NCBI RefSeq assembly: GCF_004010195.1
Contig: NC_057719.1
Span: 31,042,957 to 31,106,956, forward strand
Source: Chiloscyllium plagiosum
Taxonomy: Eukaryota
Direction: 5' to 3'
DNA length: 64,000 bases
Positions 26,916 to 54,007 of this stretch are shown here, piece by piece. The translations under genes were made by a program, and so were the position numbers. The notes under the pieces were generated by a model, which was not told where the DNA came from, did no database searches, and worked only from the letters and a program-made list of their open reading frames with translations. Position 1 is the stretch's first letter. Each line of letters starts with the position of its first letter.

Positions 26916-27187
26916 ATTCGAATTCTAAGTAGGGAACAGCTGGCATTTCTAATGACTTCCATATGCCAAGAAGTTTTGTTAAATTTTTTGTTGAATTGTT
27001 AAATATGTTTTCACCCTCTTCCTGGGGAATAATGCCTTCCCATTGCAAATGGTAACCTGTAGTGAAGAAATTCATTCAGTACCTTTGTTTGGTATTTTAG
27101 AACTCTCAATATTAGAACTGAAGCAGCTATCATTGCAAAGGAAATCCTATTGGGTATAATCATATACCAAATCATATTTGTATTTGA

Positions 27188-31400: not shown

Positions 31401-31906
31401 AATAACATTCAGGGATACATTAGGATTCCTTTTCTGTGTATGCCTTTTGATACAATTGCTTTAAGTTTTCATCTTTCTTCTGTAACTCAGTTAATTTATC
31501 TGAGCTAAAGATGTCTGCATTGTCATCTATCTGTTCCTGTTTTTGTCTCAAAAATCTGGTCAAAGAGGGTGTCTGCTAATTCCACTTCAGCTGCCTTATC
31601 TGTTTTCTTTGATCTCTCCTGTTTCAACTGGCGATTTTGTGACCTCATTACCACAGTCAGGAAGAATTCCAGGATATGTGTCCTGCAATAGTTCAATTGC
31701 CTGAGTTTCCACTGGCTTTTCAACCACAGTAGGCAGCACTCCCACCAGTGAATCAGCTATATCATTAGCAAAGACAAATTGTATTCCGAGAGCTGAGAGT
31801 TTTTCCAGTACTCCTACCATGAATTCTCCACTCTTCATTGGACACTCTAGCCTCACTTTACATAATTGAGCGCTTTTTAGCTCACCATGAAATACTGTTA
31901 CGAGTA

Positions 31907-32255
31907 CAGGTACACAATCCTTTATCCAAAATGCTCAGGACCAGCTGGTATTCTGAAATTGGAATTTTTCGAATTTCGGAATAAGTGACAGTTCAACAGT
32001 GAAATTTTGTAAATATCATACTGGACAGCAGACTCACTGTGAGTAATAGGTCCTGAGACAGAATCGAGGCCTGCCAGTGCAAGGCCACGTTTCCCCTACG
32101 TTGCATCTGAGTGACATGCATCGAGTGAGTGTGGAGTTGGGTTAACAGTTTGCACACCAAACAACCTTGTTAATGAGATTAAAACTTCACAAAAAAGCCC
32201 TTCGGATTTTTCAGTTTTTCAGATTTCAGGATTTTGGATAAAGGGTTGTCTACTG
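31907..32255. mobile_element. pogo/Tigger-like MITE inside the Gypsy pol
   Basis: TA TSD on both sides; TIRs CAGGTACACAATCCTTTATCCAAAAT and (revcomp) CAGTAGACAACCCTTTATCCAAAAT. Confidence 0.85.
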
Positions 32256-33734
32256 TACCTTTTCTGGCAATCGTCCTTCAGAAGTACGTATCCCCACATC
32301 TTTCAGCACCATAGACTAAGAGAATCCTGTGTCTCTTAATATTGTAACCTCTTTACCTACTGCTCCTGGCCTGTGTGAATAAACTTTACCTTTGCAGTTA
32401 CTGTATATGTTTAACAACATCTGGTACTTGCTCCTTAACTAATGTCTGACAAGCTTGTACGTTCTAGTACAGCTTTCTAGCCTCCACTGTGCTTTCTGTT
32501 ACCACTCCAACAAAATTCACTGGCTTATTGTGTTTTCCTACATCTGGGTTCCCAGTGCTCCTCCTAACCTGCCAACACTATGATTTCATGTGGCGTACTT
32601 TATTGCAGTGAACACCAGAGCTTTTTAACTTGCCTGTCCCCTTCAAGGGTTTCCTTTTTACCCTGTGGTAAGTTACCCATATGATCTTCACCAAGATCTA
32701 CCTTTCCCTTTCCACATGAGGATTTCTCTTTTCCCCAATTTCTAATCTTTGTAGATTGAAATTGATTCTGGAAGCCAGACTTTGTTTTATGGACCAACTC
32801 ATAATCATTAGCCATTTCAGCTACTGGTCATGCAATTTTAACTCTGCTCTTCTACATAAGTTCCCCCTACTTCAGAAAGTAAATTTTTGAACTCCTGTCT
32901 AAGTGCCAGTTTCTGAAGTTCATACTCTCTCTTTCTTCCTTTCCTCTTGCTTCATTCTCTCTCTCGTTCTCTCTCTTTTCTCTTTCTTTTTCCTCTGCTT
33001 TTAATCATCCTTCCTTGTCTTTTGCCTCTAAATCAAGCTGCTTCATTTTTAATTGAATTTTAGCCATCTCTAAAGATTGTGATGGTGTTTCCAGCAAATT
33101 TGAATGCTGAGCTACTGCTGCAATTATTTCTCCTTTCCTCACAGAAGGAGGCAGTTTCAACTCCAGCTTGTCTGCTAATTCTAGCAGCTTGGTCTTAATC
33201 AACTCTTGTAAAACCCCCAAGGTCACATCTTCCAACCCCAGAAAATTCTTGGTCAGTGAAAGAGCCATTGCTCTCCCAAGCACTGTTTAAACCAACCAAA
33301 ATCAACACCTGGAACAAAAGATACTAGCGCCTACCACTTGCTGCCCTCGAGTCGAACAACTCCAAACCCAGTTCGGAACTACAGAACAAATCCCGCAAAA
33401 AGACCCCAGTCTGTTGTGGACCAGGCCAGACCCCTGAAAACCTTTCAAGAAGGTAGCCCAGACCCTAACTTTGCTAGTTGTTTTAAGCAGGTGCAAAGTG
33501 GGTATTCTAGGGCAGAATCAGCTGGTCAAACCACTTTGTTTTAAACAAAACAGAATTTATTTACAAGATTTCTGAATGAAACACAAAGAACAGAAAACAA
33601 TACCGAATAACTTAGCCTATCCGAGAACCCAACAGATTATCCCAACTTATTGATACTGTTCCAGATACTTGCAACAATCCCCATAAATACACCTTGGCAC
33701 AAAATGTAAAATTGAACACAAGTTCAAAAAGGAT

Positions 33735-33765
<31 letters not shown>

Positions 33766-34472
33766 TGTACCAGCCTGGATCTGGGTCCAGCAACATTTTT
33801 TCACACTACTGCTAAAAACCAAACCCAACCAGTGAAAAGCTGAGCTGGGAGAATTGGCCACTCTCCTTTCAATATACAAGTTTCTTTAAAACTTGAAAGC
33901 TTTCTGCCTGGAACAGCATCTGTTGTCTATAAACAAATTGGCCCCAAAACCCATCTAAACTCAAACTTTTCGGAACCTCTGTTTTTACTACCTCCTGAAG
34001 AAAAAGCCAAGGACAGCATAACCTTGTTAAAGGAACAGCTTTGTCTCATCAGCAATAGATGTTTAAAATCTAGTGATTAGAAGTGTCGACTTCTTAAAAG
34101 AATCTCTAGAAAGAGAAATGCAGTGATTTGAAAAAACAAGCAAAATGTATTATGTAATAGTATATTGGTAACTTCAATTAATTACAATAACATAATTTGT
34201 ATTTTGTGGTCAGTGACAAAAAGAATGCACTCACCATAAATGTTCCTCTAATTTTTGAGATGTCTGAATAGATTTCTGAGAGGTCTGAGCAGTATATTTG
34301 AACCAAAAACATCTATTTAGCAGAAGTCATATGGCAGTTTTCTCATGGTCTATTTATCAACTATTAATGTTATAAATACCTGCTAAATAAACATAATTGT
34401 TTACTTGGCTCAGAAGTCTGGGACCAGTTTAGCACTAGTACTTCATACAATATGCAACCAAAAGATGATGTG

Positions 34473-34785
34473 ATTAGATTAGATTAGATTACTTACAGTG
34501 TGGAAACAGGCCCTTCGGCCCAACAAGTCCACCCTGACCCGCCGAAGCGCAACCCACCCATACCCCTACATTTACCCCTTTACCTAACACTACGGGCAAT
34601 TTAGCATGGCCAATTCACCTGACCTGCACATCTTTGGATTGTGGGAGGAAACCGGAGCACCCGGAGGAAACCCACGCAGACACGGGGAGAATGTGCAAAC
34701 TCCACACAGTCAGTCGCCTGAATTGAACCCAGGTCTCTGGCGCTGTGAGGCAGCAGTGCTAACCACTGTGCCACCGTGCCGCCCA
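34473..34785 (-). mobile_element. HE1-type V-SINE
   Basis: Full consensus, (GATTA)n tail, flanking ATGTGA repeat. Confidence 0.9.
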
Positions 34786-34859
34786 CAATGTGAGGAATTT
34801 CTTAACTCCTTTGTTATCAGCTTTGTCTTTATTTGCTGCCCAATGATTGTGTACCACAT

Positions 34860-36830
34860 CCAGGCTGATATTTTGTCTAGGTGAAATGTATGACTGAATT
34901 TGCATCAGGTTTTCCAAATGATCTATTTCTAATCTATTTAGATTTAATCAGGTTTATTAGGCTATCACCACAATCACGGTAAGCACTTGATGCCCGAAAT
35001 GTTGCACAAATGTCCCGAAGCATGCACATTTCTTGAAACTGTTTGTCTTTTCGGACATCAACTTGCTGAATGTCTGAGTGGAACTCATCTTGACGTTTTC
35101 CACAACTACAAATTTGAGATTGGAATATTGTACACTTGGTTTTGTGGTTACTCTTCACAGTTTGTTATGATGGAAATATTTCAATATCAGTTGCACCATA
35201 TTGTCTTTCAAAATTCACAATCAGCTTTCTTGGTGGTTGCAGCCTGATCAAATGCATTTCACTCCAATAGCTTCCCTTCTGGAAATCTGCTTTTCGTATT
35301 GTTACAAAGCAGTTAAATAAATTGAAGGCTTACTGCAGTTTCAACTTTTTTGTCTAGAGCAAGCAGAATTATCTTAACATCATCATCCAATAACGACATT
35401 GAAATAGATACTGGGTCTTCAGTCTATCAGAAACATAGAAAATAGGAGCAGGCCATTTGGCCATTCAAACCTGCTCCACCATTCAACATGATCATGGATG
35501 ATCATTCAACTGTGTACCCTGCTCCTGCTTTCTCCTATACCCTTTGATCTCTTTAGCCCTAAGAGCAATCTCCTTCATAACAACATTCAATGTTTTGGCC
35601 AAAATAGCTTTCTATGGCAGAGAATTCCAAAGCTGATACTCTCGGAGAAGAAACTTCTCCCCATCTCAGTGCTAAATGGCCTATCCCATACCCTTGGACT
35701 GTGACTGCTCAATTATTGTCAAACAGCTTCTCTGAAAGAATTTGCACAAAATCATATAAATTCTAGTATGAAGCAGGCCAGTTGACCTGCCAAGTCCACA
35801 CTGACCCTCAGAAGTGCGTCGCCCACATTTGTCCCCCTCTACCCTATCTCTGTAACCCTGCATTCCTCAGGCACAACCATGGACACTATGGGCAATTTAG
35901 CATGGCCAATCCACCTAACCTTTGGACTGTGGGAGGAAACCAGAGCACCCAAAGGAAACCCACACACACAAGGGGAGAATATGCAAACTCCGCACTGACA
36001 ATTGCTTGAGGTTGGAATCAAACCCAGGTCTGTGGTGCTGTGAGACACTGAGCCATTGTGCCGCCCAGTGATGCCCATTTACCTACAACGTCATTCATAA
36101 TGCCAATGCAATGTACTGTTGTGGATTTGGAAGCATTTTCAGGCAATACTGGTTTATCTGATTGTTGAACTTATTCACTTGCTCTGGATAGGAGTTGATC
36201 TAAACATTGTAGTTTTGCACTTGTGTCTTGACAGCCACGTCACTCCATTCAGCGGTCAAAATGCTACTGCATCACACTCTGTGACTGGCAAACTCTTCGA
36301 ATTGTCCTCTTTTCATAGATAACTGCTGAACATTGAAATGCTTCTGAAAACATTGTGTAAAATATACATATTTGAGACCTGCTTCCATGTATCATCAATT
36401 ACAAGATATTCTCTATGAGCAATGTTGTTCTGACAAATGTTTGATTTTCTATCATAACACTGCTGTACTCTATTTTTCTTTCCAAGCTTAACAGAATGTC
36501 CACCATCTATAAATCACAGTCAGTGTTAATATAAAATTGCCTGATTGCTGTTACAGTGGAGATGCTGTTGCAAGCTTTGATTTCAAGGTTCCTGTAGATA
36601 ATCTTGGAAGCAATTTCAGATTTTGTTTGAAACTTGATAGATAAGGTCAAGTTTTTTTTGCTATGAAGCATCTGTACTTGCATCTACTATCAATGTATGA
36701 AAACACAATTCATCCAGGAACTGGTTCAGTATGACAAAGTTAATCACTCTACAAATTTAACACATAATTCTTGCTGCATCAGTTGTAAGTAATTGCTGTA
36801 TACTTCACCACAAGACATCATGAATATCTT
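34860..36830 (-). pseudogene. Ancient hAT (Tip100/ZNF862-like) transposase fossil, interrupted by CR1 and SINE
   Basis: Minus-strand remnants in hAT order: HTLIVDASTD, EQ..IAHREYL, PLNGVTWLSRH, and dimerisation domain ICATFRASSA....SLINLIKSK...HLENLMQI; many stops and frameshifts. Confidence 0.7.
35750..36066 (-). mobile_element. Older HE1-type V-SINE
   Basis: GGGCAATTTAGCATGGCCAAT..GGACTGTGGGAGGAAACC core. Confidence 0.75.
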
Positions 36831-36975
36831 GCATAGAAAGCATGGACTCACTCACGGGACATGGGCATCACTGATTGGGCCAGCATTTATTGCCCATCCT
36901 CATAGTTGCCCTTGAGAAGATGGTGGTGAGCTGCCTTCTGAACCAATGCAGTCCATGTGCTGTAGGTAGACTCAA

Positions 36976-37087
36976 GGAGAAAGTGAGGTCTGCAGATGCT
37001 GGAGATCAAAGTTGAAACTTTATTGCTGGAACAGCACAGCAGGTCAGGCAGCATCCAGGGAACAGGAGATTCGACGTTTCGGGCACA
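36976..37087 (-). mobile_element. PLE family A end truncated within hammerhead helix II
   Basis: GGAGAAAGTGAGGTCTGCAGATGCTGG...TCGACGTTTCGGGCAC. Confidence 0.75.
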
Positions 37088-38389
37088 TTTTGGATCAGAT
37101 TCTGCTGCTTTAGGAGCAAATAGTACTGTCAGTTTCATGATAAGTGAAAATTTCACTGATTCATACCTTACTGTGTTAAAAATGACATTTTGGTTATGGT
37201 AGTTTTGGAAAGCCAATCCTTTTTGAAAAACAGACCGGATTTACTATCAAGTTTGAAGACTCATTTGTGTTCTTTTCTTAATAAGTTTGAATTAAGGTTT
37301 AAAATATCAAAGAAAAATGTAATTTTCTTTTTACATTATGTCCTTCTGGAGTGGCTGCCTGCTTCCAAGACCTCATGTTGCCTGATGCTCCAGGTCACTG
37401 CAGACTGTAAACTGTAAACTCCCTTCACCTGGAACTTTTGTATTATGGCCTGGTCTTTTTACCCCTCCCCAAGCCAGCCTCCTATTGCTTCCCTTCTGGA
37501 CTTGTATTTGATCAGAATCTGGAGTTGTAATGGTGTGGAAGAAACTATATGAGTACTAAATAACAATTCATGGTTCAGAAGTGTTGGCCTGAACAGTGAG
37601 ATTGTGGAGAATTATGGGGTTTGTCTGTTTTAGATTCAACTTTCAATCTTTCGACATCTGTAGGCTATCTATAGCATCCAGTAGCCCATTAAGCAGGCTG
37701 AGCAGTCAATTAGATTGAAGAATTCTCAGAGAATAAACCAGGAAGTGGAAAATCATGGATTATTATTCACTTTGAAATAACCTGACACAAATCATGGTTA
37801 GGGTTGGATAGGCAGTTTAGATTGGGGTTGAAACTGAAATATCATCAATATGTTAAAAAATATATAATATTGTGGAATGAGAGAATGACATTTCACACAT
37901 ATAAGGTGAAAGGGCCAAAGATAATGTTTCATAATTGGCTTAGTGTGCCATTAATGGCTCAGTTACATCTAATTTTAAAAGCTTTTACAATGCCCCTTGT
38001 CCATAAGAGGTTGAGGTTCACATTCCATCATTGATTCTATGTTGTTTCTATTTGTTAAACTTCCGATATTGCGCCCTGTGAAGCAGCAGGATATCACAGA
38101 CAGCAAATTGCAAATTTTTGATGTATCACAATAATGGCAAATGCTGATGTTTTTCCTGACCACTATTACAGTCACAAATTGCATGCCAAAGCATTGTCAC
38201 CCAGTGAACTGAGCAATTGTTCCTTAAAATACAAGTCCACTGGAGGACTTGAATATACATTGTGTCGATCTTTGTTGGTCTATAAAAATTATGTTTTTTT
38301 GAGACTGATTGAATAATTGATCTGAAAAAATACCTTATTTTGGATTATATTTTTAAGAAACTTAATGTTGGATTTTCTTTCCCTTGAAG

Positions 38390-38513
38390 GTTCAACCATA
38401 CAATAATGTGCAAATGTCTCCAAAACAAAGGACCGAAAATATATTTTTTACTAGAAAACCTAATGTCAGCAATTCAAATCTTGAGAATAACTTGGCTAGT
38501 CTGACAAACTCTG
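38390..38513 (+). CDS. Probable internal coding exon of an unidentified host gene (124 bp, phase 0 to 1)
   Basis: Acceptor TTTTCTTTCCCTTGAAG|G, donor G|GTAAGT, open frame VQPYNNVQMSPKQRTENIFFTRKPNVSNSNLENNLASLTNS, in unique AT-rich flanks. Confidence 0.6.
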
Positions 38514-41500
38514 GTAAGTTATTGTTTGAGATTTACTAGAATTGTACTGAGTTTCAAGTCATTTGATGATTTGTAATTCTTGTTATTTAATTTTCTGGAT
38601 CATACTATTTGTTCTTATTACTTTGTCTACACATTCATAATGGGACTTCCTTATCTATAAACCATCTCCGTCTTCCTGAAAAATTGCAAAAATTCTCAAA
38701 ATAGCTTAGAATGAAATGCCACCTTGAAAAGATGTTACTAATGATCATTTGCCTACCATGTGAAATAACTCCACAGAGGCTGGTATCCCATCACCAGGTC
38801 ACTCTTTCTTTACATGTGCGTAGTACTTAGCATTGGTCCAGCTCTCTCAGAGTCAGCTCTCAGAGTCACCAGAACTTCCTGTTTATGTCTGCCAGCCAGT
38901 GTTGATAAATGATGCCCACTGTCTGTGACCAACACTTCAGCGAGCCCACGTATTGCAAAAAATGCCCACAGGTTTTTCTATCATCATCCCTGTATTGGAC
39001 AAATGAACTCTATGAAGGTCCAATTACTTTGAGTGGGTGTCCACGACTAAGGACATTGAGCCCATGAAAAGGCTGGAATAGTCAAGTGTAACCGAGTCCA
39101 AGGTCTACCTGGCCATTCCCACAAATGTAGGGGAGCTACTGGCAGTAATTTTTGTCCACTGCCCCATCATTGAAGCTTTGTATCTACATCCAATCCTGGT
39201 TACCAGACACAACTTCTCACCAATATCTTCATTTTGGAAAACCCCTGGATGACTCTGGTGGAGTTAACCAGTATCTGGCATTTGCTACTTGGCTACCTGG
39301 ACCGTGTTCCAGCCCATTGCTGAATTTAACCTGAAACTATAGGAGGCACAGCCTTGACCTCTTTGAGTAGTCCTAGTAAGGATTTGTTGTCTGTTACTAT
39401 TACAGATTTACCTGTGTTAAGATATTGATGGAACTTTCACAAGATGACTGCCAAACCTTCCTACTCTATCTACGTATATTCGTGCTCTGCATCAGCCAAA
39501 ATCTGGGAAACATATGCTATTGGGCATTCCTTTCCATTGGGCCATCTGTCGGCCAACACCACCCCAATACCATACGGAGAGACATTGCCTGAAGGCACCA
39601 GATCTCGCTTGGGATCATAGTGTGCCAACATCTTAGACAGTGGTAGCTGCTTCTTCATTTCCCGACATGCTATGTCTTGGTTATGGGGCCATTTTCAAGG
39701 CTGACCTTTTTTCAATAGCAGATGTAAGGGTGCCAGGTTACATAGAGTCAGAGTCACAGAGATGTACAGCATGGAAATTGACCTTTTGGTCCAACTCATC
39801 CATGCTGACCAGATATCATATCAACTTTCTGTAATAATTCATCAGTCCAAGGAAAGACCTAAGCTCTGGTACACTCGTGGAAGCGGAGGTACTTTTGATC
39901 ACCCTCATGTCATCTTCCAACGAGTTTAACCCAACTTTGTCAACTCTGTAGCCCAAGTAGGTCACTTGGGGTGCCTAGGACACATATTTCTCCCTACTAA
40001 GGCAGACACCCCCTTGAAGAAATGTCTAAGGACTATGTCCAAGTTTTCTAAGTGTTCTTTATTGGTCTTCCCTGTTATGAGCACATCATCCAGATAAATG
40101 GCAACTTGGGGCAGACCTTATAAAATGTTCTCCATCATGTGCTGTGAAATGGCACAGGCTGATGATAGCCCAAATGGCAGTACATACGCATGGCTCATGT
40201 CCAGCTTCATGAAGAACAGACCCCCTGCGAGCTTTGCTCTAGGTCCTCTATGAGGGAGGTTGGGTATTTATTAAGCTGCAAAAAGCTCCTTACCGTTTGT
40301 GTAAAATTCTCACAAAGGCGAACCGACCAATTGGGCATCACAATTGGTACGACTGGTGTTTCTCATTCCACAAACTGTACTGGTTTGACAATTTGTGCAT
40401 TTTCCAGTCTGTTGATTTCTGCCTCTACTTTTGCACATTAGGTTAAATTGCACTGGACAGGCCTTGCAGAATTGTGAAAATGCTTCCTGGTTAACATGCA
40501 AGATGGCCTTGACTCCTTTCATAGCTCCTAGTCTTTCCTGAGAAACCTTTGATTATTTAATAGGACTTCACTCAAGTATTCATCTGCTAATTGAAAAATG
40601 TTGAGCCAATCAAGGTGAATCTTTCTCAACCAATTTTGCCCTATCAGGCTTGGGCCCAAGCCTTTTACTACAATCAGTGGTAACTGAACCAGCTACTTCC
40701 CATAAAAGAATGGAACTGAAGTTGTACCCTTAATCTGTAAATGTTTGCCAGCTTAGCTTCTCAGTCTATCTGAGGTCTTGCACAAACGTAAGAATTGGAG
40801 AGGAGAGTGAACTTTGTTAAGACAAGTTCTGCAGTCACTGATACAGCTGCGCCAGTGTCAACCTCCATTAGAACTGGGTGACATTTAACCAAACATTTAT
40901 TTTGATTCATTTTGATTTGGATGTTGCTAGGCAATTTAACTGTTCCAAGCCAGACGTACGTTTGCTTCCCAAAGTGTGCACTTGCCTGGATACTGGCCTA
41001 TGAGTTCTCTAACTCAGTTCAGGCCTAGTAGGACTCTTTTGCATTGAATCTGCATATCAGCAGCAACTATAATGGCTTGCTGGCCCAGATCGCGAAGAAA
41101 ATGGTTGATCGAGGCTTGGCTTTGTTTTAGGGTTTTGCTATGGGCTGACCTAGAGTCCCCTTGCTCAGGATATATCTTGAGTGAGGCTCTTTACTCAAGT
41201 GGTGGCCTGGAGACAGTGTCTACTTCCGCTGGCATGCTCTCTAACTCATATGCTCCACTAGCCACATTTTCCAATGATAAAGCAAGTTGCAGTGCCAGTT
41301 TGAAGTTCAAAATCACACAACACCAGGTTATAGTCCAACAGATTTAATTGGAAGCACACTAGCTTTCAGAGTGCCGCTTCTTCATCAGGTGGTTGTGGAG
41401 GACACAAATGTAAGACACAGAATTTATAGCAAAAGTTTACAGTGTGATGTAACTGAAATTATACATTGAAAAATACCTTGATTGTTTCATCTGTTCGAAT

Positions 41501-42668
41501 ACCATGATGTGTAAATCACAAAACATTTTTTAAAAAGTTGCATTCTCAGGTTAACTTTAACAATTGGTGTTAGCTAGACAATATGTTGAAGGTGTTGGCC
41601 CCGTGTTCTCTGTCTGTGCCATAACAGAGTCTTACATAAATTCATGCAGTTTTTGAGCAAAGTACGATGTAACTCTGCAAGTACGAATTCACCCCATATA
41701 TGTATATGTATATGTGTGCATGTGAGTCTTTGTGTATGTATGTATGTGTGTATGTGTCTGTGTGTGTGTGTCTGTCTGTCTGTCTCTGGGGTGGGGGTTG
41801 TGAAAAGTGGCCGAGCAGAGGCTGATAACTAATATTCATATCCATAGTGAGGGCCTCAACCGGGACCTTGGGTTCATGTCACACCACAGGTGACCACCAT
41901 TGCAATGTACACACACATGGACACTCCTGCGCGCGCACACACACACACGCACTCCTATACACACATATACACAGACACGCACGCACGCACACACACACAC
42001 ACTACCACACTCACACATGCATCCTCTCAGAGACTTAGACCACTCTACACTCACGCACACACATATACACTCTCTCTCACAGACACTAACAACTCCCCAC
42101 CCCAGACACAAACACACTCCTACTAATACCCACGCCCCCCCCCCACTCACACATGCACCCCTCACAGATTTAAGACACTCTACATTCACATACACACACA
42201 CATATACACTCTCTCTCACACTCTCAACCCCCCAACCCAGACAGACAGACACACACGTGCACACACACACATACACAAAGACCCACATGCACACATATAC
42301 ATAGACATTTGTGGGGTGAATTTGTACTTGCAGAGTTACATTGTACTTTGCTCAAAAACTGCATGAATTTATGTAAGACTCTGTTATCTCACTTTTTAGT
42401 TGGAATCAGTCTAAACATTATGGCACAGACAGAGAACACACCTTCAACATATTGTCTAGCTAACACCAATTAGTACAGTTAATCTGAGATGCAACTTTTA
42501 AAAGAAAGTTTTGTGATTTACACATGAAAGAAGTGAACCTATCATGGTATTCGAACAGATGAAAGACTCCACAAACAACCAAGGTATTTTTCCATGTATA
42601 ATTTCAGTTACACCACACTGTAAACTTTTTCTATAAATTCTGTGTCTTACAATTGTGTCCTCCACAAC

Positions 42669-42703
42669 CACCTGATGAAGGAGCGGTGCTCCGAAAGCTA
42701 GTG
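42669..42703 (+). ncRNA. Minimal type I hammerhead ribozyme (PLE family C)
   Basis: CAC-CTGATGA-A-GGAGC-GGT-GCTCC-GAAA-GCTA^GTG: helix I CAC/GTG, helix II 5 bp, palindromic AGCT stem III. Confidence 0.85.
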
Positions 42704-44139
42704 CTTCCAATTAAACCTGTTGGACTATAACAGAGAGTTACCTGGACACTTTGTTTCAGGAGGCAGTCACACCTGGGAGATTAAGTAATTCACATTCAGT
42801 TGGTGATCAGGGACATCAGAGTGTGACTATAAGTGAGGCAGGCAGGGGGAACTTGAGTTCAGGAATGCTAGAGCCTCAGCCCTTGACCTTGTCCAACAGG
42901 TATGAGATTCTTGCTCCCTATATGAATGAGGAAAAGGGCTCCGGACAGGATGAGCCAGCTGACCACGGAACCATGGTGCAGAAGGCCATTCAAGAGGGGG
43001 GAGCAAAAAAACAAGTAGTTGTTATAGGGGATTCTATAATTAGGGGGACAGATAGTATCCTATGCAAGCCGGATCGGGAGTCTCGCATGGTGTGTTGCCT
43101 GCCCGGTGCCAGGGTGCGGGACATCTCCGACCGGCTTGAAAGGATATTGGAGCGGGAGGGGGAAGATCCAGTTGGGACTAACAACATAGGCAAAGCTGGG
43201 GGGGAGGACCTGTTTGGGGATTATCAAGCACTAGGAAGGAAATTGAAGTACAGGTCCTCAAGGGTCATAATCTCCGATTACTGCTCGAGCCACGTGCCAA
43301 TTGGCATAGTGATAAGAAAATTAGGTAAGTAAACACATGGCTAAGGGATTGGTGTGGGAAAGACGGATTCCACTTCATGGGGCATTGGCATCAGTTTTGG
43401 AACGGGGGGGATCTGTACCGTTGGAACGGTCTCCTCCTGAACCGATCTGGTACCAATGATTTAGCGAAGAGCATAAATAGGGTGGTCATTAGGACTTTAA
43501 ACTTCTGAGTTGGGGGGAAGGGAAAGTGAAAGCGACAGGGAGTATGGAGTTAAATGGAAAGATAAGCAGGAGGATAGCATGTATTCAGGTGGATTTAACC
43601 TTGAGGCAGATTAGGAATGCAACAAAAAAGGAAGGATAACTTAGGACATCTTATGACTTCCAATATCTCTAATGATAAGAATGTTAGCATTAAGGCACTT
43701 TACCTGAATGCTCGTAGCATTCGTAACAAAGTAGATGAACTAACGGCACAGCTCATCGTGCATGATTATGATGTGGTAGGCATCACAGAGACATGGTTGC
43801 AGGGGGTTCAGGACTGGCAGTTAAACATCCAAGGATTTACAATTTATCGAAAAGACAGGGAGGTGGGCAGAGGGGGCGAGGTGGCCTTGTTAGTTAAGAA
43901 CAAAATTAAATCTATGGCACTGAATGACATAGGGTCGGATGATGTGGAGTCTGTGTGGGTGGAATTGAGGAACCACAAAAGCAAAAAAACCATAATGGGA
44001 GTTATGTACAGACCTCCTAACAGTGGTCAGGACCAGAGACGCAACATGTACCGGGAAATAGAGAAGGCATGTCAGAAAGGGAAGGTTACAGTGATCATGG
44101 GAGACTTCAATATGCAGGTGGACTGGGTAAATAATGTTC

Positions 44140-44279
44140 ATTTGGAGACAGTGCCTGTTTAATTGCTGTAAACAAAAAGCATGATCACTGTTGATGTAAT
44201 GTTTCTGCAGGACCTGGAGATCTCCTTTGGATAATCCAATTTTCGGATAATTGGTATTCGGATAATCGAGGTTCCTCTG
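44140..44279. mobile_element. pogo/Tigger-like transposon end
   Basis: Three TT(C/T)GGATAAT motifs ending CGAGGTTCCTCTG; abuts a minus-strand CR1. Confidence 0.65.
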
Positions 44280-44280
44280 T

Positions 44281-45270
44281 TCCATCAAAATTGGCCTTCC
44301 TCCCATTTAGAACTTCAGCTTTTAGATTTGGTCTATCCTTTTGCATTACTATTTTATATCTAATAGAATTATGGTCACTGGCCCCAAAGCGCTCCCCCAC
44401 TGATACCTCAATCACTTGCCCTGCCTTATTTGCCAAAGATAGGTCAAGTTTTGCACACTCTCTCGTAGGTATATCCACATACTGAAGCAGAAAGTTTTCT
44501 TGTGTACACTTAACAAATTCCTCTCCATCTAAACTTTGACTACGATGGTAGTCCCAGAGTATGTTTGGGAAGTTAAAATTCCCTATCATAACCACCCTAT
44601 TATTCTTACAGATAACTGAAATCTCCTTTAAAATTGGTTTCTCAATTTCCCACTGACTATTGAGGGTCTACAGTACTATTCTTCTATTCCTACCCTCACT
44701 AGCTCGTAACACCGGATATTATCCAGATATTACCACTCGAGGAGCTCCTTTTTAAAATTCTTAACTTTCTATATTACCAGACAGAATCTCATCCTTCTGC
44801 CTTCCTATGTCATTCGTTCCAATGTGTACAACGTCCTCCTGCTGGTCCCTCTCCTCTTTGAAAATATTCTGCGCACTCTCCAAAATATCTTTGATCCTGG
44901 CACTAGGGAGGCAACACACCATTCTGATTTTTCGCTGATGGCCGCAGAAATATTCACTGTTCATTTTTTTTTTTAGACGCACTCCAATATCCAAAGATAC
45001 TTAAACTCACAACAGCAAAGGCAGTAGCTGTGCAGACCCACTGCTGAGAGAGCCAGCAGCGTGGGTTTCTTTCTGACCTTGTGTTCTCTCCATTTGTCTC
45101 TCTTCCTCCCTTTTAAAGGACGCTGTTTTGATCTTTCTCCCCCACAGTTCCAAAACAATGCAACAGCATATAAAACAGTAATTACTGCTCCTGGAATTTG
45201 AGGAAATCACCTCTCCAATAGCCAAGATACCTCAAAAAGCAGTGCTTACAGCCACAATTTTACTGCCAAA
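44281..45270 (-). mobile_element. CR1 5' portion (5' UTR, esterase piece, APE piece) with deletions
   Basis: MVCCLPSARIKD..HIGTNDIG and IGNFNFPNILW..SDHNSI; UTR homologous to 2780-3000. Confidence 0.8.
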
Positions 45271-46564
45271 TTTTAATGTGATAGGTTGATTTGTACATTT
45301 GGTTGCTGCATCTCCCTTCAAAACAGTGACTGCACTTGCAAAAAATAAACCATTGTTTGTGAAGTGTTTAGAATCATCTGTGAATGGAATGTGATGCGAC
45401 AGAAGTACTATCGTTTTCTTACTGTTACATTGAAATTTTTTTCTTCTTTTGAATGTATACAGAAAATGACAAAAAAAAGTTGAAAGAGCCAGTTTCAAGA
45501 TAGAAACAGTCTGATGTAATTGAACAGCTGAAGATTTTCGGAGGATGCGACTGTATGATTGTACCTGGCTTCTGTTCCTATTCTTACCTTCTTATCTACT
45601 AAATGTTCCTCATAACTTTACCCTTTATCAATAAAACAATTAGCCATCTTCAAACTTGTTAAATCTTCTGTTTCCTCATTTTGCCAAAGCAAATAAGCTC
45701 AATTTTTCTAATATTTCCTTCCAGCCAGATTTTCTTTCCTTCCCAGAAGTGAACATCGATTGGGTCAAATTAATGTCTGACCTAATTAATTCATTGAAAA
45801 AATCCCGCTAATAATGAAATCCGATACTTATTTACTACTTTTCTTAAGTAAATTAATTTATCTTCTGTAATTCGCAGGTTATTTTCTTGATCAGTATGTT
45901 GTACTGTGATTCCATTTTACATGTATTCCATTTCCTTGGTTCCAAACAATTTATTTCACAATGACCAGATTAAATTGTGCAAATCGTTCTTTTACAGGAA
46001 AGTACCAAAGAGAAAGGAAAGATTGGATTTAATTCCTCTTACACAGAACCATAAAAACAAGACAGTTGGGGCTGTTCAACCTATCTAGTCCATGCTGACC
46101 CAAAGACACCCAGATGCCCTTCCTAATTTCATCTTTCAGCACACAGCCCATAGACATGCTTGAATCTTTCTCTAATATTCAGGCTGCCTTCTTACTTGAT
46201 GGCATCTGCAAAGATTTTACTCATACAACTTCAATATAGGAGACTAGGACCCGTGGCACAGCCTTAGAATTAGAGGGGGTCAATTCAGAACAGAAATGCG
46301 GAGACGTTTCTTCAGCCAGAGAGTGGTGGGCCTGTGGAATTCATTGCCGCAGAGTGCAGTGGAGGCCGGGACGCTAAATGTCTTCAAGGCAGAGATTGAT
46401 AAATTCTTGATGTCACAAGGAATTAAGGGCTAAGGGGAGAATGCGGGTAAGTGGAGTTGAATTGCCCATCAGCCATGATTAAATGGCGGAGTGGACTCGA
46501 TGGGCCGAATGGCCTTACTTCCACTCCTATGTCTTATGGTCTTATAACCTGGTATTGTGTGATT

Positions 46565-46928
46565 TTCAACTTTGTACACCCCAGTCCAACACCGGCATCT
46601 CCAAATCATGTTTGAGGTTCAGTTGCACTTCAGCCAGTAGGAGCTTTTGCATGGTCACATCATTAATCCCACTTGCCAAATGGTGTCTCAGTATATCATT
46701 AAGCGTTAAACCAAAGTCACACGCCTCTGCCAGTCATCTTTACCTCTTCAACTTTGTACACCCCAGTCCAACACCGGCATCTCCAAATCATGTTTGAGGT
46801 TCAGTTGCACTTCAGCCAGTAGGAGCTTTTGCATGGTCACATCATTAATCCCACTTGCCAAATGGTGTCTCAGTATATCATTAAGCGTTAAACCAAAGTC
46901 ACACGCCTCTGCCAGTCATCTTTACCTC
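46565..46928. repeat. Perfect 182-bp tandem duplication
   Basis: 46565-46746 is identical to 46747-46928; TTCAA microhomology at the breakpoints. Confidence 0.95.
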
Positions 46929-47117
46929 TTCAAAAATCCCGTCTTGGATTCCCCTGGTTCTCAAACAGCTGAGTAAAACTGATAGCATCTCAGAATTAGA
47001 TTAATTAATATTCCTTAACTCCGTCAGCTCTTGAAAAGTTTTCGTATCTGGTGCCTCAGGAAACATTAGGCTTTTAATAACTGAAAAAGCTGAGCGTCCA
47101 CAATCTCAGGATAATTA

Positions 47118-48872
47118 AAAACTGAAAAACTGTGGATGCTGTAAATCAGAAACAAAAACAGTAGTTACTGGAAAGGTTCAGCACATCTGGCAGCATCTGT
47201 GAAGAGAAACCAAAGTTTCTCAGGTCTGGTGACCCTTCCTCAGAACTGATGGTAGCTAGGAAAATGTCAGTTTATGTGCAGGAGATAGGGTGGAAGGAGA
47301 GGTTAAGGAGTAAGTAGGGGTAGAGCCCAAAGAGAGAGAAGAATAGTTGGACATACAACAGAGTTGATAACGATCTGGCTGGGAGGATGAGTAGCTGTTA
47401 ATGGTGACTAGGCAGAAGTGGGTACTGCAGATGCTGGAGATTAAAGTCAAGATTAGAGTAGTGCTGGAAAACCACAGCAGGTCAGGCAGCATCTGAGGAG
47501 CAGGAAAAATCAACATTTTGGGTAAAAGCCCTTCATCAGGAATGAGGCTGGGAGCCTCGGGGCTGGAGAGATAAGTGGGAGGTGGTGGGGCTGGGGGGAA
47601 GGTAGCTGAGAGTGCAATATGTGAATGGAGGTGGGGGTGAAGGTAATAGGTGGGAGAAGAGGGTGGAGCGGATTGGTGGGAAGGAAGATTGACTGGTGGG
47701 ACAGGTCATGAAGATGGTGCTGAGCTGGAAGGTTGGAACAGGGGTAAGGTGGGGGAGGAGAAATGAGGAAACTGGTGAAGTTCACTGATGCCATGGGGTT
47801 GAAGGTCCCGAGGCGGAAGATGATGAGGTGTTCTTCCTCAAGGCGTCAGGTGGTGAGAGAATGGTGATGGAGGGAGGCCCAGGATCTGCATATCCTCGGC
47901 AGACTGGGAGGGGGAGTTGAAATGTTCGGCCATGGAGCAGTGGGTTGATTGGTGCAGGTGTACCAGAGATTTTTTTTTAGATTAGATTAGATTCTCTACA
48001 GTGTGGAAACAGGCCCTTCGGCCCAACAAGTCCACACTGCCCCTCCGAAGAGAAAACCACCCAGACCTATTCCCCTACCCTATATTTACCCCTGACCAAT
48101 GCACCTAACTCAGTGGGCAATTTAGCATGACCAATTCACCTGACCTGCACATCTTTGGATTGTGGGAGGAAACCGGAGCACCCAGAAGAAATCCACGCAG
48201 ACAAGGGGAGAATGTACAAACTCCACACAGATCGGCGGGAATCGAACCCAGGTTCCTGGTATTGTGAGGCAGCAGTGCTAACCATTGAGCTACCATGCCG
48301 CCCCTTTAAAGCAACGACCAGCCCAGACACGGCATGGCACTGCAAACCTCTCTGAAGGGCTCTGCGAGAAGGCGTCCGGTTTCCCCAAAGTAGAGGAGAC
48401 TGCATCAGGGGAAAGGGATATAATAAATGACACGTGTAGAAGTGCAGGTAAAACTGTGATGAATGTAGAAGGCTCCTTTGGCGCCTTGGATGGAGTGAGG
48501 GGAGAGATGTGCGCGCAGGTTTTGCAATTCCTGCGATGGCAGGGGAAGGTTGGTTGTTGGGGTGTGGACTTGATCAAGTAGTTGTGGAGGGAACGGTCTT
48601 TGCGGAAAGCAAAAAGGGATGGGGAGGGAAATATCTTCCTGGTGGTGGGGTCCGTTTGGAGGTTGTGGAAATGTTAGCGGATGATATGATTTATGCAGAA
48701 GTTGATGGGGTGGATGGTGAGGACCGGAGGGTTCTGTCCTTGTTGGGGTTGGAGGGGTGGGGTTCGAGGACGGAGGTGCGGGACTTGGATGTTAATGGTG
48801 ACTGTTAGTGGCTAACAATTGGTAGTGTGTAATGAGAGACTGTGTGATAACAAGGCCTGGTATGTGTGGTCT
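47118..48872 (-). mobile_element. PLE family B end containing a PLE family A GIY-YIG fragment (about 47411-48789)
   Basis: Inner element flanked by TSD TGTTAATGGTGACT; TFPCHRRNCKTCAHIS motif; degenerate hammerheads near 47225-47248 and 47510-47545. Confidence 0.8.
47978..48303 (-). mobile_element. HE1-type V-SINE inside the PLE
   Basis: Consensus head, core and tail. Confidence 0.9.
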
Positions 48873-48879
48873 AGGATAT

Positions 48880-49480
48880 AACATAGAACATAGAAAAATA
48901 CAGCACAGTACAGGGTTGCGCCGATCCAAGCCCACCTAACCTACACTAGCCCACTATCCTCCATATGCCTATCCAATGCCTGTTTAAATGCCCATAATGA
49001 AGGAGAGTCCACCACTGCTACTGGCAGGGCATTCCATGAACTCACGACTCGCTGAGTAAAAAATCTACCCCTAACATCTGTCCTATACCTACCACCCCTT
49101 AATTTAAAGCTATGCCCCCTCATAATAGCTGACTCCATACGTGGAAAAAGGTTCTCATGGTCAACCCTATCTAAACCCCTAATCATCTTGTACACCTCTA
49201 TCAAGTCACCCCTAAACCTTCTTTTCTCCAATGAAAACAGCCCCAAGTGCCTCAGCCTTTCCTCATACGATCTTCCTACCATACCAGGCAACATCCTGGT
49301 AAACCTCCTCTGCACCCGTTCCAGTGCCTCCACATCCTTCCTATAGTATGGCGACCAAAACTGCACACAATACTCCAGATGTGGCCGCACCAGAGTCTTA
49401 TACAACTGCAACATGACCTCAGGACTCCGGAACTCAATTCCTCTACCAATAAAAGCCAGTATGCCATGTGCCTTCTTCAC
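48880..49480 (-). mobile_element. Young CR1 3' fragment with an open frame
   Basis: ORF 48941-49510 has uninterrupted CR1 C-terminal motifs; tail (TTCTATG)n. Confidence 0.9.
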
Positions 49481-49487
49481 CGAAAAA

Positions 49488-49569
49488 TGACAGTGGCGGG
49501 ATCCGAACACACGCCCCTTTTGAGACTGGAACCGGGATCCAGCACCTTAGACCGCTTGGCCACACTATC
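49488..49569 (-). tRNA. tRNA-Leu-derived sequence (probable pseudogene or element head), apparent anticodon CCG
   Basis: GATAGTGTGGCCAAGCGGTCTAAGGTGCTGGATCCCGGTTCCAGTCTCAAAAGGGGCGTGTGTTCGGATCCCGCCACTGTCA, 82 nt, colinear with vertebrate tRNA-Leu(AAG/TAG); followed by TTTTT. Confidence 0.8.
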
Positions 49570-49935
49570 AGGCACTATAGGGGAGTTCAGTCCCAAACAT
49601 TATCTTAGTGCCTGAAATAATACTGAGATTTCCCTATCAGGAGAACTACTCATTGATTTTCAACTGCTCCAATGTCATTTGCCCATAAAAAGTACATTCT
49701 TTCCACATATTGGGCCCTGTCTTCATCAGCAGGACCAAATGAATCAAGCTTCCCAAATAATGGCATGATGCCAGAAATGCTTACCCAAACTCAAAGATGA
49801 CCATTGCAAGCGAACTTCTTCAGGAGGGTATTTATTTCTCTCATTGCCACTGAATTAACTCTGCAGATCTCCACTAGTCTGGCTTCCTCAGAGACAGCTC
49901 TCAGAGTCAATAGAACCTCTGATACTGCTGTTTAT

Positions 49936-50169
49936 TTTTTTTTAATCTTAATCCCCACACTACCGGCTAGGTGCGGTAGTGCTTATTTTATCCCCAGCAC
50001 CCATGGTGTGTGTGTGCAGGTGTGAGACACAGTGAAAGACACAAAGTGCACGAATCTTTATTCAAATTCCACCACCAGGAAGACAGGAAAACACCCGGGT
50101 GGCCAGTGACAAACACTGCCCTTCGCATCAAAGGGCAGTGCTGTGTGATCAAAACAGTGAAGGGGAGGG
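49936..50169 (-). mobile_element. Poly(A)-tailed retroposed fragment (L1/Tx1-like 3' UTR) inside the Gypsy LTR
   Basis: 16-bp TSD TGATACTGCTGTTTAT, poly(A) tail on the minus strand, AATAAA, two hairpins. Confidence 0.75.
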
Positions 50170-51320
50170 TGATACTGCTGTTTATATCTGTCAGCCAGGG
50201 CTCCCTGATTGGACCAACTTAGCCCCCATCAGGGAATTCATATTCTGTGAGGTCCACTTGCCTGACCTTGTTACAATCACTATACCATGGATCAGCCTTA
50301 GCTCAGTAAAGATTAACTTAATCTTATTTGTCAGAGTTAAAAAGCAACAACACCAGGTTATAGTCCAACAGGTTTATTTGGATGCACTAGCTTTCAAAGT
50401 ATTATTTGTCAAGTAATTATTTGCATTTTGGTTCCTTGAATATATAAAGTATAGCTTATAACATGCTTCAGGAAAACTAGGCTACTGATTGATGTACAAA
50501 AGGTAGGATATCATCATTAGTGGAAATTGATATTGGATTATTGCAATGTACTTTCTCTTAGTGCAAGCAATTGTATTACTGTTCTAATTATCTTCATATG
50601 ATGGCTTAAGCATGTGATGAAATGATTGTCGAAGTAAATGTGGATCCTCATGGTTGGGTTATATTAGACAACGAGACCTGGATAGTTTCTAGGCTTGGGC
50701 TGACAAATGGCAGGTAACATTCACATCACATAGGTGCCAAGATAGATCCCTCCATCAAGAGAGAATTGAATCGTCTTGACTTGACATTCAACAGCAATAT
50801 TATCATTGAATCCTATGCTATCAATATCCTGAGGGTTATCATTGATTAATAGAAATACTATGGCAACGAGAGGAAGTTAGAGGCTAGGACTACTGCAGTG
50901 AGTTCCTCATCTCTCCAAAGCCTGTCCACCATTAGTCACAAATCAGGAGTGTGATTAAATACTGTGCACTTGCGCCTGGATAAGTGTAGCTCCAACAAGA
51001 CTCAAGAAGCTTGTCCTGATCCAGGACAAGCAGTTGGCTTAATTGGAACTCACAAATTCAACAAGCAGTAGCAGGAGTGTGTGCCATCTGGAAATGCAGT
51101 GCAGATATTCACCAGGGCTTCTTAGACAAACCTTCCAAATCCATGACTACTTTCATCTAAAAGTACAAGGGCAGCAGATATATGGGTGCACGACAACATC
51201 AAAGTTCTTCTCCAAACCACTCATCATTTTGACTTGGAAATATATTGCCGTTCCTTCACTGTTGCTAGATCAAAATTCTGGAACACCCTCCCTAACAGCA
51301 TTATGGATGCACCCACATTA

Positions 51321-53616
51321 AAGAACAAAGAAAGTTTACAGCCCAGGAACAGGCCCTTCAGCCCTCCAAGCCTGAGCCGATCCAAATCTACTGTCTAAAC
51401 CTGTCACCAAATTCCGAAGCATCTGTATCCCTCAGCTCCCCACCTACTCATCTTAAATGAATTTACTGTGCCTGCCTCTACCACCTCTGCTGGCAACGCA
51501 TTCCAGACGCCCACCACCCTCTGTGTGAAGTACTTGCTGTGTGTAGACCCCCTTAAACTTTCCACCTCTCACCTTGCAAGCGTGACCTCTCGTTATTGAA
51601 TCCTTCACCCTGGGAAAAAGCTTGTCTTTATCCACCCTATTTATACCCTTCATGATTTTGTAAACCTCAATCAGGTCCCCCCATAATCTCCTTTTTTCTA
51701 ATGAAAACAAACCTAACCTACTCAACCTCTTTTCATAGCTAGCACCTTCCATACCAGGCAACATCCTCGTAAACCTTCTCTGCACCCTCTCCACAGCGTC
51801 CACATCCTTTTCGTAATGTGGCGACCAGAACTGTACACAGTATTCTAAATGCGGCCGAACCAATGTCCTGTACAATTTTAACATGACTTGCCAGCTCTTA
51901 TACTCAATACCCTGTCCAATGAAGGCAAGCGTACTATATGCCTTTTTGACCACTCCATCCACCTGTGCAGCAACCTTCAGGGTACAATGGACCTGCGCAA
52001 CCTTCAGGGTACAATGGACCTGCACTCCCAGATCTCTCTGCCCATCAGCTTTTCCCAAGGCCCTTCCGTTCATTGTACAATTTGCTCTAGAATTAGTCTT
52101 GCCTAAATGCATCACCTCACATTTGTCTGGATTGAGAACCATCTGCCACTTTTCTGCCCAACTCTCCATTCTATCTATATCCTCCTGTATTCTTTGACAG
52201 TCCCTTATGCTTTCTGCTACTCCACCAATCTTTGTGTCATCTGCAAACTTGCTGATAATACCAACAATGCCCTCTTATGGATCATTTAAGTATATCACAG
52301 ACAACAGTGGCCCCAGCACTGATCCCTGTGGAATACCACTGGTCACCTTTCTCCATTTCGAGAAACTCCCTTCAACTACTACTCTCCAGTTCTTTACCAA
52401 CCTAGCTAGAACACCCTGTACACCATGTGACTTCACGTTCTCTATTAGTTTACCATGGGGAACCTTAAACACCTTACTAAAGTCCATGTATATGACATCA
52501 ACAGCCCTTCCTTCATCTATCAACTTGGTCACTTCCTCAAAGAACTCTTTAAGTTGGTAAGGCACGATCTCCCCCGCACCAAACCATATTGCCTATCACT
52601 GATAAGCCCATTCTTTTCTAAATATAAATGGATCCTCTCCATCAGTACCCTGTCCAGCAACTTTCCCACCACCGACGTCAGGCTTACTGGTCTGTTGTTA
52701 CCCGGTATAACCCTACTACCCTTCTTGTATGGGGGACAACATGAGTAACCTTCCAGTCCTCCGGCACCTCACCCGTATTTAAGGATGCCACAAAGCTATC
52801 TGTCAGGGCCCCAGCAATTTCCTCTCTCGCCTCCCTCAGCAACCTGCGATAGATCCCATCCAGTCCTGGGGATTTGATGTCAATGTGATCCAGACTAATC
52901 AAACTTCTATCTCTAATCTCAAGATTCATCATGTTCCTCTCCTCAGTGAACACTGGTGCAAAGTAATCATTCAGAATCTCACCCATTCTCTCAGGTTCGA
53001 CACACAGCCTTCCTTCATTATCCTTTAGTGGACTAATCCTTTCTCTAGTTACCCGCTTGCTTCTTATACAAGAATAAAATGCTTTGGGATTCTCCTTAAT
53101 TCTGCTCGCTAAAGCTATTTCATGACCCCTTTTAGCCCACTTGATTCCTCGTTTAAGTCTTGAACTACTCTTCCAATATTCCTCAAGGGTCAGTTTCGTT
53201 CTTAGCTGCCTAGACCTTATCTACGGTCCTCTTGGCTAGTCGTACAATTTCTCCTGTCATCCACGGTTCACGAATCCTGCCCTTCCTATCCTTTGCCTTC
53301 AAGAGACATGCCTATCCTGCACTATCTTTAACCTATCTTTGAAAGCCTCCCACATATCAAATTTGGATTTCACTTCAAATAGCTGTATCCAATCCACATT
53401 TCCGAGCACCTGCCTAAATTTCATATAATTGGCCTTGGTCCAGTTTAGTACGCTTCCCTTAGGACCACTCTCATCTTTATCTATGAGCATTCTGAAACTT
53501 ACAGAATTGTGGTCACTGTTCCCAATGATAACCCCCACCGCAACTTCTACCACCTGGCTCGTTCCCCTGTACCAGGTCCAGTATGGCCCCTTCCCTCATT
53601 GGACTATTGACATACT
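51321..53616 (-). mobile_element. CR1 LINE from APE end to 3' tail
   Basis: GNSDHNSVSF, KSPGLDGIY, YMDFSKVFKVPH, SGIPQGSVLGP, 238-aa C-terminal ORF; internal 27-bp in-frame duplication at about 51970-52023. Confidence 0.9.
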
Positions 53617-53913
53617 GACAAATGTACAACTATGGTTCAAAGTGGCATTCTATCACCAGCATCTCAAGGGCAAAAATGGATGGGCAATAAATGCTAGCCA
53701 GTCAATGAAGTCCACACCCTCTGAATAAATTTTTTAAAAGTTTATATAATATGGAATCAGAAATTATTCTATATGCTCAAGGCGCAGATGCAGCAATTTG
53801 TGTGAAGTAGGTACACCCATCATGCTGTTAGGAAGTGTGTGGCAGGATTTTATTGTCGTAGTAGTGAAGGAACAGCGATAATAGTTCCATGTCTGGCATG
53901 TGGCTTAACAGGA

Positions 53914-54007
53914 TGATTCCTGAAGAAGGGCTTGTGCCCGAAACGTCAATTCTCCTGTTCCCTGGATGCTGCCTGACCTGCTGCGCTTTTCCAGCAACAC
54001 ATTTCCA
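53914..54007 (+). ncRNA. 94-bp PLE family A insertion made largely of a hammerhead motif
   Basis: 18-bp TSD GCATGTGGCTTAACAGGA; CTGAAGA-A-GGGC-TTGT-GCCC-GAAA-CGTC at 53920-53947. Confidence 0.8.

Follow-up and report, generated by a model that had tools for sequence, protein, structure and literature searches.

Is the hammerhead-like motif at positions 42669-42703 of the window (the whole stretch of 64,000 nucleotides of Chiloscyllium plagiosum DNA analysed here) an intact ribozyme, which element brought it there, and what could it do within a host transcript? A preliminary description of the stretch had called it an intact minimal hammerhead, one of many from three Penelope families, and had suggested that such copies could pair within a host pre-mRNA. 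We examine these points in turn, from the motif itself to its carrier, its relatives across the genome and the transcripts of its family. Coordinates of the features are collected in Table 1.

The motif and its relatives in the window

The letters of the motif read, in order, CAC (42669-42671), CTGATGA (42672-42678), an extra A, the stem-loop GGAGC-GGT-GCTCC (42680-42692), GAA, the palindrome AGCT (42696-42699), A17 at 42700 and GTG (42701-42703). Stem I comprises 3 bp and stem II 5 bp, the palindrome stands where helix III would be, and A17 closes the UA cut triplet. The motif has the core of the minimal hammerheads of Penelope-like elements (PLEs), CUGANGA and GAAA with an NUH triplet, together with the extra base between positions 9 and 10.1, the G10.1-C11.1 pair and a palindromic 15.2-16.2. 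A strict descriptor (core boxes, stem II of at least 4 bp, palindromic 15.2-16.2, NUH and stem I of at least 2 bp) matched the window once, at this motif, against a mean of 0.01 and a maximum of 1 match in 100 shuffles. The scan that had been proposed therefore recovered the target and confirmed that it is intact. The same descriptor gave 36 matches in 80 spread stretches (782,877 bases), compared to 1, 1, 0, 0 and 1 in five shuffles. The bare core pattern was weakly enriched in the window (14 versus 6.68 expected), a count reached by one of 100 shuffles. Rfam yielded nothing that reached the gathering score, nor a hammerhead family when E values up to 10 were allowed, which is not counter-evidence because the motif is without helix III, and the fold of the target monomer was no better than that of shuffles (z −1.18). 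We conclude that the motif is almost certainly a PLE minimal hammerhead, which is a known kind of ribozyme (PMC4209133); as a single motif, it is ordinary.

All 13 copy positions of the preliminary description hold a copy that is recognisable by eye, 7 on the plus and 6 on the minus strand, and a search with the tails recovered 12 of them, missing the copy at 61782. Twelve of the 13 fail the strict descriptor through a decayed palindrome, a broken stem I or II, or core changes. The density, claimed to be high, is average: the tail search gave 22 hits over the 64 kb of the window (344/Mb), counting the target's split tail as one of them, versus 316/Mb in a genome-wide sample, and the window holds a single strict-intact motif versus about 42/Mb in that sample.

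Table 1. Features of the window, with position, strand and remarks.
Feature	Position	Strand	Remarks
Minimal type-I hammerhead, family C	42669..42703	+	Predicted scissile bond between 42700 and 42701; 12,186 exact copies genome-wide
Poly(A) hexamer ATTAAA (42710-42715) and equivalent of the family poly(A) site (42727-42730)	42710..42730	+	From reads on paralog L003
TATAAA box	42632..42637	+	40 nt before C3
PLE direct arm	41801..42731	+	Last 29 codons of RT-endonuclease ORF (41804-41890), 3' UTR with (CA)n, hammerhead, tail start
Inverted (head-to-head) arm of the same insertion	41306..41763	-	Hammerhead core 41364-41388, stem II broken
CR1-like LINE, later insertion into the PLE tail	42732..46546	+	PF03372 at 43605-44159
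Displaced remainder of the PLE tail	46547..46609	+	GU-rich tract and AC-rich optional extension
Left target-site duplication	41298..41309	+	11 of 12 bases equal to 46610-46621; overlaps arm end by a few bases
Right target-site duplication	46610..46621	+	Partner of 41298-41309
Family A head-to-head palindrome	21361..21530		Core 21441-21464 (+); 5' strand of stem I replaced by inverted arm
Family B copy: GIY-YIG remnant, then decayed hammerhead (14813-14840)	14120..14900	+	PF01541, E 0.0094, below Pfam cut-off
Family A copy: linker remnant (CX4CXXC) and decayed hammerhead (47512-47539)	47455..48673	-	Copy split by a SINE-like repeat
Family A stub beginning at the hammerhead 5' edge	53916..54010	+	Core intact, stem I broken
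Intron of TOGARAM1/FAM179B	1..64000	+	First coding exon about 20 kb to the left; further exons from about 14 kb to the right

Families and covariation

Covariation was tallied over 472 copies with full flanks from 160 stretches, with 23 of 495 copies left out at an edge or gap. The tally was anchored on the descriptor, and a MAFFT alignment of 11 copies that was one column off in the 3' half was excluded. Exact core boxes were found in 153 of the 472 copies. Stem II is GGGC/GCCC in family A, GGGT or GAGT with ACCC or ACTC in family B, and GGAG/CTCC in family C. The first pairs of stem I are C-G and U-A in family A, U-A, U-A and G-C in family B, and C-G, A-U and C-G in family C, in which the third pair is U-A in 3 of 35 copies. 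At the centre of 15.2-16.2, C-G is found in 69 of 103 family-A copies versus G-C in 31 of 35 family-C copies. The extra base is A in 148 of the 153 core-intact copies and N17 is G in 3 of them; family B is old, and none of its 11 core-intact copies keeps a Watson-Crick palindrome. The tally supports three Penelope families with different self-complementary stems and a palindromic stem III, as previously proposed, and the covariation expected of them is present as compensatory stem differences between families around a fixed core. The copies are related by descent, so that this evidence amounts to four families rather than 153 events, and the motif counts are not independent. A fourth hammerhead family, with stem II GGGT/ACCC and 13 copies in the sample (L142:4710-4750, L073:4344 and L138), was absent from the preliminary list.

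The family-A palindrome at 21361-21530 folds at −117.3 kcal/mol (z −18). More head-to-head palindromes, with junctions in or beside a hammerhead, lie at 21200-21320, 24320-24421, 28285-28428 and 55101-55273; these would give long double-stranded intron hairpins, and they draw chance Rfam microRNA matches. The tails of families A and B (e.g. 53965-54000 and 14860-14895) share an ATG-led MLPDLL-FSSN with third-position differences, possibly the start of an ORF. Two other repeats were also seen, a decayed LTR-retrotransposon remnant at 28861-33000 on the minus strand (RT_RNaseH, Pfam E 1e-25), and an array of 56-57 nt tandem repeats at 11430-12120, which was left unmasked by the 1.6-Mb sample.

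The carrier element

The target stands at the end of a 5'-truncated Neptune-type PLE, the insertion of which has an inverted arm and a target-site duplication and the tail of which was later interrupted by a LINE. Its direct arm matches a natural long copy, L039, at 78% over 950 nt. Inverted 5'-truncated arms, a tail at one end only and target-site duplications are likewise described for PLE insertion units (PMC8557442, PMC3846280). The LINE (3.8 kb), presumably a CR1 from its ORF and 3' end, entered at 42731, within 1-4 bases of the family poly(A) site, and separates the poly(A) hexamer from the GU-rich downstream element, which is shifted 3.8 kb away. TATAAC flanks this LINE on both sides, either by chance or through an AT-rich target preference.

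In long copies, the family-C hammerhead lies about 700 nt behind an RT/GIY-YIG-type ORF. In L039, the ORF encodes a YIDD RT and a CX4CXXC linker, and its YLIRC..C..WYIG endonuclease lies 725 nt ahead of the hammerhead. Motif reading thus places a C-terminal GIY-YIG-type endonuclease, with two cysteines between its motifs, behind the RT, and the linker ahead of it, CHGGRCKTC, fits the CX2-5CxxC pattern. This linker is given for Neptune and Nematis, not for Penelope/Poseidon (PMC8557442), and is a difference from the Anolis Poseidon PLE, PAc (PMC11167929). Profile matches to the PLE protein were weak (RVT_1, E 1.4e-5 on L043), Pfam gave no GIY-YIG match on family C, and the best PDB match had an E value of 0.95. 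By its predicted protein, the carrier is probably an endonuclease-bearing PLE of the Neptune type. Window copies of families A and B likewise trail endonuclease or linker remnants (Table 1).

Family C has two 3' ends, at about +52-63 (41 of 94 copies) and +88-99 (41 of 94). This resembles PAc, in which two 3' ends also define an optional AC-rich tail behind the hammerhead, the RT starting at two internal sites which define the tail (PMC11167929). The PAc ORF starts at stem II (PMC11167929), whereas in family C the ATG of the core meets a stop after 8 codons.

All 16 ORF-bearing loci that we examined for a full tandem pLTR-ORF-pLTR were truncated, broken or gapped; one locus with a nominal 990-residue frame was rejected on account of an assembly gap. 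L044:3543-4469 shows an in-frame fusion between a hammerhead followed by 30 nt of tail and an internal segment of the RT ORF, with an inverted tail flanking, and a template jump near the poly(A) site could have made this junction. The type I hammerheads of non-LTR retrozymes in vertebrates, among them one cartilaginous fish, are related to PLE pLTRs, but retrozymes form head-to-tail tandem arrays (bioRxiv 10.64898/2026.07.22.740005), whereas the copies found here occur dispersed, either singly or head-to-head, and are associated with PLE ORF remnants. A retrozyme identity was therefore rejected, as the window copies do not form head-to-tail tandem units each with a hammerhead.

Abundance and 5' ends of genomic copies

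Exact intact motifs of family A number 70,570 in the genome (3.56 Gb), in addition to those of family C (Table 1), and reversed controls gave 0. The two patterns together amount to at least 82,756 motifs, compared to about 4,000 in coelacanth and about 9,000 in Xenopus, which were found by other search methods (PMC4209133). Tail copies of all families numbered 495 in 1,566,289 bases from 160 evenly spread stretches, which extrapolates to about 1.1 million; strict-intact copies (66 of 472) extrapolate to about 150,000. Stubs of 85-120 nt are the dominant form in the genome, and for 222 of the 472 copies a head-to-head partner lies no more than 250 nt away.

The 5' ends of family A and C copies were analysed in 329 scored copies of 344 examined. 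In family A, 84 of 146 at-risk copies stop 28-35 nt before the cut site versus 1 of 52 at 44-59 nt, and in family C the respective numbers are 30 of 57 and 2 of 15. Per nucleotide, the stop rate at 28-35 nt is 0.10 in A and 0.09 in C, and at 44-59 nt it is 0.001 and 0.009. Copies starting at the scissile bond, the fossil that a cleaved template would leave, showed no excess (13 of 222 in A, 4 of 84 in C), and the stop rate at the cut site (0.010 and 0.008) was similar to that at neighbouring positions. The pile of 5' ends at the front edge, combined with no excess at the cut site, indicates that templates were uncut or re-joined there and that synthesis stopped at the front edge. The flanks of edge copies are mostly unrelated, a few copies being diverged subfamilies misread as truncations, and a duplication of at least 9 nt, counted without a chance control, was seen in 13 of 86 edge copies. 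The stop was sharper in paired copies (67 of 92 at risk) than in solo copies (47 of 111).

Promoter-like motifs at the front edge

In 10 of 11 long family-C copies, TATAAA lies at −38 to −40 from C3, which is about 30 nt ahead of the piled 5' ends. Family A has TTATCT 33-36 nt before C3 in 34 of 40 long copies. An initiator-like YYANWYY stands at the edge in 30 of 40 family-A and 4 of 4 family-B copies, and was found in none of 11 family-C copies within −7 to +2 of C3. The commonest family-A start, 4 nt before C3 (23 of 142), coincides with the initiator A. From the usual 30-nt TATA spacing, transcription of the target would be predicted to start near 42662-42664. We infer that Pol II initiation takes place a few bases ahead of the core, with a TATA or TATA-like box about 30 nt upstream and an initiator in families A and B. 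This start is read from DNA alone; read length and subfamily divergence both confound the increase in read depth close to the 5' edge. A TATA box and an Inr-like motif have likewise been noted in a rotifer pLTR (PMC8557442, PMC3846280).

A used poly(A) site behind the ribozyme

Canonical Pol II poly(A) signals consist of A(A/T)TAAA, a cut 10-30 nt later, a GU-rich element behind it and an untemplated A tail. Transcript reads of family C came from one poly(A) single-cell run (about 2% read, no deduplication), the organism of which may differ from that of the window; they were placed on the paralog L003:1330-1700 (window offset 41099), and are not reads of the target locus. A sister run gave 0 reads. 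Of the 3,634 family reads on L003, 1,296 end in poly(A) (589 at 1628 and 707 at 1631), with A-runs on the sense strand of the hammerhead. These ends lie 27-30 nt past the scissile bond, 12-15 nt past A(A/T)TAAA (1611-1616) and just before the GU-rich tract, and the sense read depth falls there from 1,928 to 528. Across the scissile bond (between 1601 and 1602) the depth does not drop (1,809, then 1,917), and no shared read ends at the bond were found in this poly(A) library, from which a cleaved 3' product of about 30 nt plus tail would be lost. The reads carry many variants (e.g. AATAAA in 715 of 1,880), so many loci contribute to them. No genomic copy with an A-run (eight As) at the poly(A) position was matched, versus 30,631 exact hexamer-site-GU copies. 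A further 198 reads with A-rich ends at L003:1690 and low agreement (0.48) were set aside.

Of 94 family-C copies, 74 have the hexamer at this place, where the various subfamilies keep either AATAAA or ATTAAA, and neighbouring hexamers are kept in 44-66 of 94. It was found at that place in 0 of 378 copies of families A, B and D (A 0 of 250, B 0 of 115), and the layout is therefore shown for family C only. AATAAA occurs within 60 nt in 17 of 250 family-A copies. One family-A subfamily, with a stem I of 4 bp and copies 98-100% alike, has AATAAA about 50 nt past the cut site, a candidate second poly(A) site (window 37017-37090, minus strand; L064, L073).

Family C thus has the canonical signal at the family level; at the target locus, the LINE has moved the GU-rich element away from the hexamer. 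We conclude that family-C transcripts end in poly(A) about 30 bases past the uncut ribozyme. A used poly(A) site behind a PLE hammerhead is new here: our literature search found no PLE poly(A) site or LTR-like order, and supplements and subscription papers may hold related observations. The available text of PMC4209133 reports neither a poly(A) site nor piled 5' ends, both of which are shown by the family described here. In the main texts of PMC3846280 and PMC2377424, 'polyadenylat' and 'AATAAA' occur 0 times, whereas family C has a used site, and the mentions of 'polyadenylation signal' in the available text of PMC6765202 concern Clec2, not PLEs.

The host gene and the fate of the target

To the left of the window, at a distance of 20 kb, a long exon matches FAM179B (5DN7, E 6e-115); on the same side (L051-L053), TOGARAM1/FAM179B has a BTB-BACK-Kelch gene as its head-to-head neighbour. 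We take this neighbour to be KLHL28, in an arrangement as in mammals. A search inside the 64-kb window revealed no convincing exon; small exons may be present. The host gene is on the plus strand, and plus-strand copies therefore lie within its pre-mRNA, as had been suspected. The further suggestion that copies with the same palindrome could pair there fared worse, as the window holds no second intact sense copy and folding predicts that the target pairs with the antisense arm, which lies 1.3 kb upstream. In the predicted equilibrium fold of 41300-42740, all motif bases but one pair with this arm, and the predicted probability of the closing pair of stem II is 0.80 without the arm versus about 0 with it; for a nascent intron, equilibrium folding may overstate such pairing. 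The prediction is thus that the target is buried by the upstream antisense arm, and the target hammerhead is likely inert at this locus. The nearest intact-looking sense AGCT copy that we saw is about 25 kb downstream, in L055. Over 154 kb of TOGARAM1, 23 copies are in sense and 23 in antisense orientation, a weak test because n is 46 and many copies are in head-to-head pairs.

Discussion

On balance, the target is probably the intact hammerhead of a truncated, LINE-interrupted Neptune-type PLE in a TOGARAM1 intron, likely inert there, and in an active element the hammerhead probably lies in a short repeat between the predicted start and the used poly(A) site. With a poly(A) site behind and a TATA box ahead of the piled 5' ends, this repeat is likely U3-R-U5-like, with the hammerhead in R. 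A retroviral LTR carries the promoter, start, poly(A) hexamer, poly(A) site, GU-rich element and RT start within one terminal repeat, and its reverse transcription yields minus-strand strong-stop DNA. The PLE repeat would have the same order, namely promoter, start, hammerhead, poly(A) site, GU tract and RT starts. We regard this as an analogy of function and not of membership: PLEs have no tRNA primer or integrase, priming takes place on nicked target DNA, and it is tandem insertion that creates the repeat.

Transcribed at unit length from a tandem, the RNA would contain exactly two hammerheads, the first following the cap and the second preceding the poly(A) tail. The two, being on one transcript, could form a dimer, and their paired cleavage would strip both cap and tail. 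If reverse transcription began at the internal sites of the 5' copy, it would proceed off the 5' end of the RNA and give stubs of 85-120 nt, like strong-stop DNA. At the target locus, the antisense arm would be transcribed first and pair with the whole motif, and the LINE parts the hexamer from its GU-rich element. We offer a wider version of this scheme tentatively and hold it to be rather doubtful. According to it, the pseudo-LTR would be a functional U3-R-U5 with the hammerhead filling an R of 60-65 nt, and paired copies, with the element's protein, would cut off cap and poly(A) together and turn an mRNA into a template. The million-odd stubs would be integrated strong-stop cDNAs, and the more than 30,000 spread poly(A) signals, rather than the ribozyme, would be the main route to shortening host transcripts.

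The stubs could alternatively pile at the 5' edge because cDNA folds back or switches template on the ribozyme stems, not because the RNA starts there, with the hexamer as a chance cryptic signal that serves host read-through transcripts only. Almost half of the sampled copies have a close head-to-head partner and paired copies stop more sharply than solo ones; self-priming has been proposed for such junctions (PMC3846280), and the reads cannot separate element transcripts from host read-through. However, solo copies have the same peak, which fits the family-A initiator A at −4 and the 30-nt spacing from family-specific TATA-like motifs, and the hexamer of family C is kept more often than its neighbours. 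We therefore judge fold-back improbable, if worth keeping in mind. Much less credible is that sense intron copies pair via their palindromes, as the preliminary description had envisaged, and cut TOGARAM1 pre-mRNA. The host gene is on the plus strand, the target is fully intact, the copy in L055 could be a partner, and dimer and trimer constructs of the Schistosoma motif were cleaved weakly in vitro, minimal hammerheads cleaving weakly and as multimers only (PMC4209133). Against this stand the absence of an intact sense partner in the window, the predicted full pairing of the target with the antisense arm, the even orientation of copies in the gene and the family reads without ends at the cut site. 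The Anolis PLE hammerhead, too, is inactive without the element's protein, and a search of RNA-seq data found no ends at its site (PMC11167929).

It is more improbable still that the hammerhead appearance is a by-product of other constraints, such as a promoter or a protein-binding site, and no longer a catalytic fold. A stem I of 2-4 bp, the monomer fold and the silence of Rfam would agree with this, as would the spread of Naiad PLEs without hammerheads (PMC8557442). But the core boxes, the extra A, the G10.1-C11.1 pair, the palindrome and NUH are kept while the stems change in matched pairs over four families, and in the Anolis motif C3G and G8C abolish cleavage, which the double mutant partly restores (PMC11167929). 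We thus retain the reading of a PLE hammerhead set between a predicted start and a used poly(A) site.

In several respects, the hammerheads found here resemble those described for metazoan PLEs, which are of type I without a real helix III, with a palindromic 15.2-16.2, an extra base between 9 and 10.1 and a G10.1-C11.1 pair. These also occur in several families per genome, mostly as solo copies of truncated PLEs with opposite-strand pairs close together, and are positioned in the flanking repeat of the PLE (PMC4209133). The likeness to PAc extends to uncleaved RNA as the template and to RNA-seq data without ends at the cut site (PMC11167929).

The interest of the family lies in what PLE hammerheads may do: in Anolis, the hammerhead depends on the element's protein, insertion in vitro does not require it, and RNA-seq showed no cleaved ends (PMC11167929). 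Families A, B and C all have hammerheads and only C has the hexamer at this place, so that orientation bias in introns can separate an effect of the ribozyme from that of the poly(A) site; families A and B are a natural control within the genome for the poly(A) effect of family C. A used poly(A) site behind the ribozyme, together with a predicted start before it, makes it possible to test concretely which parts the ribozyme takes off, and at what stage.
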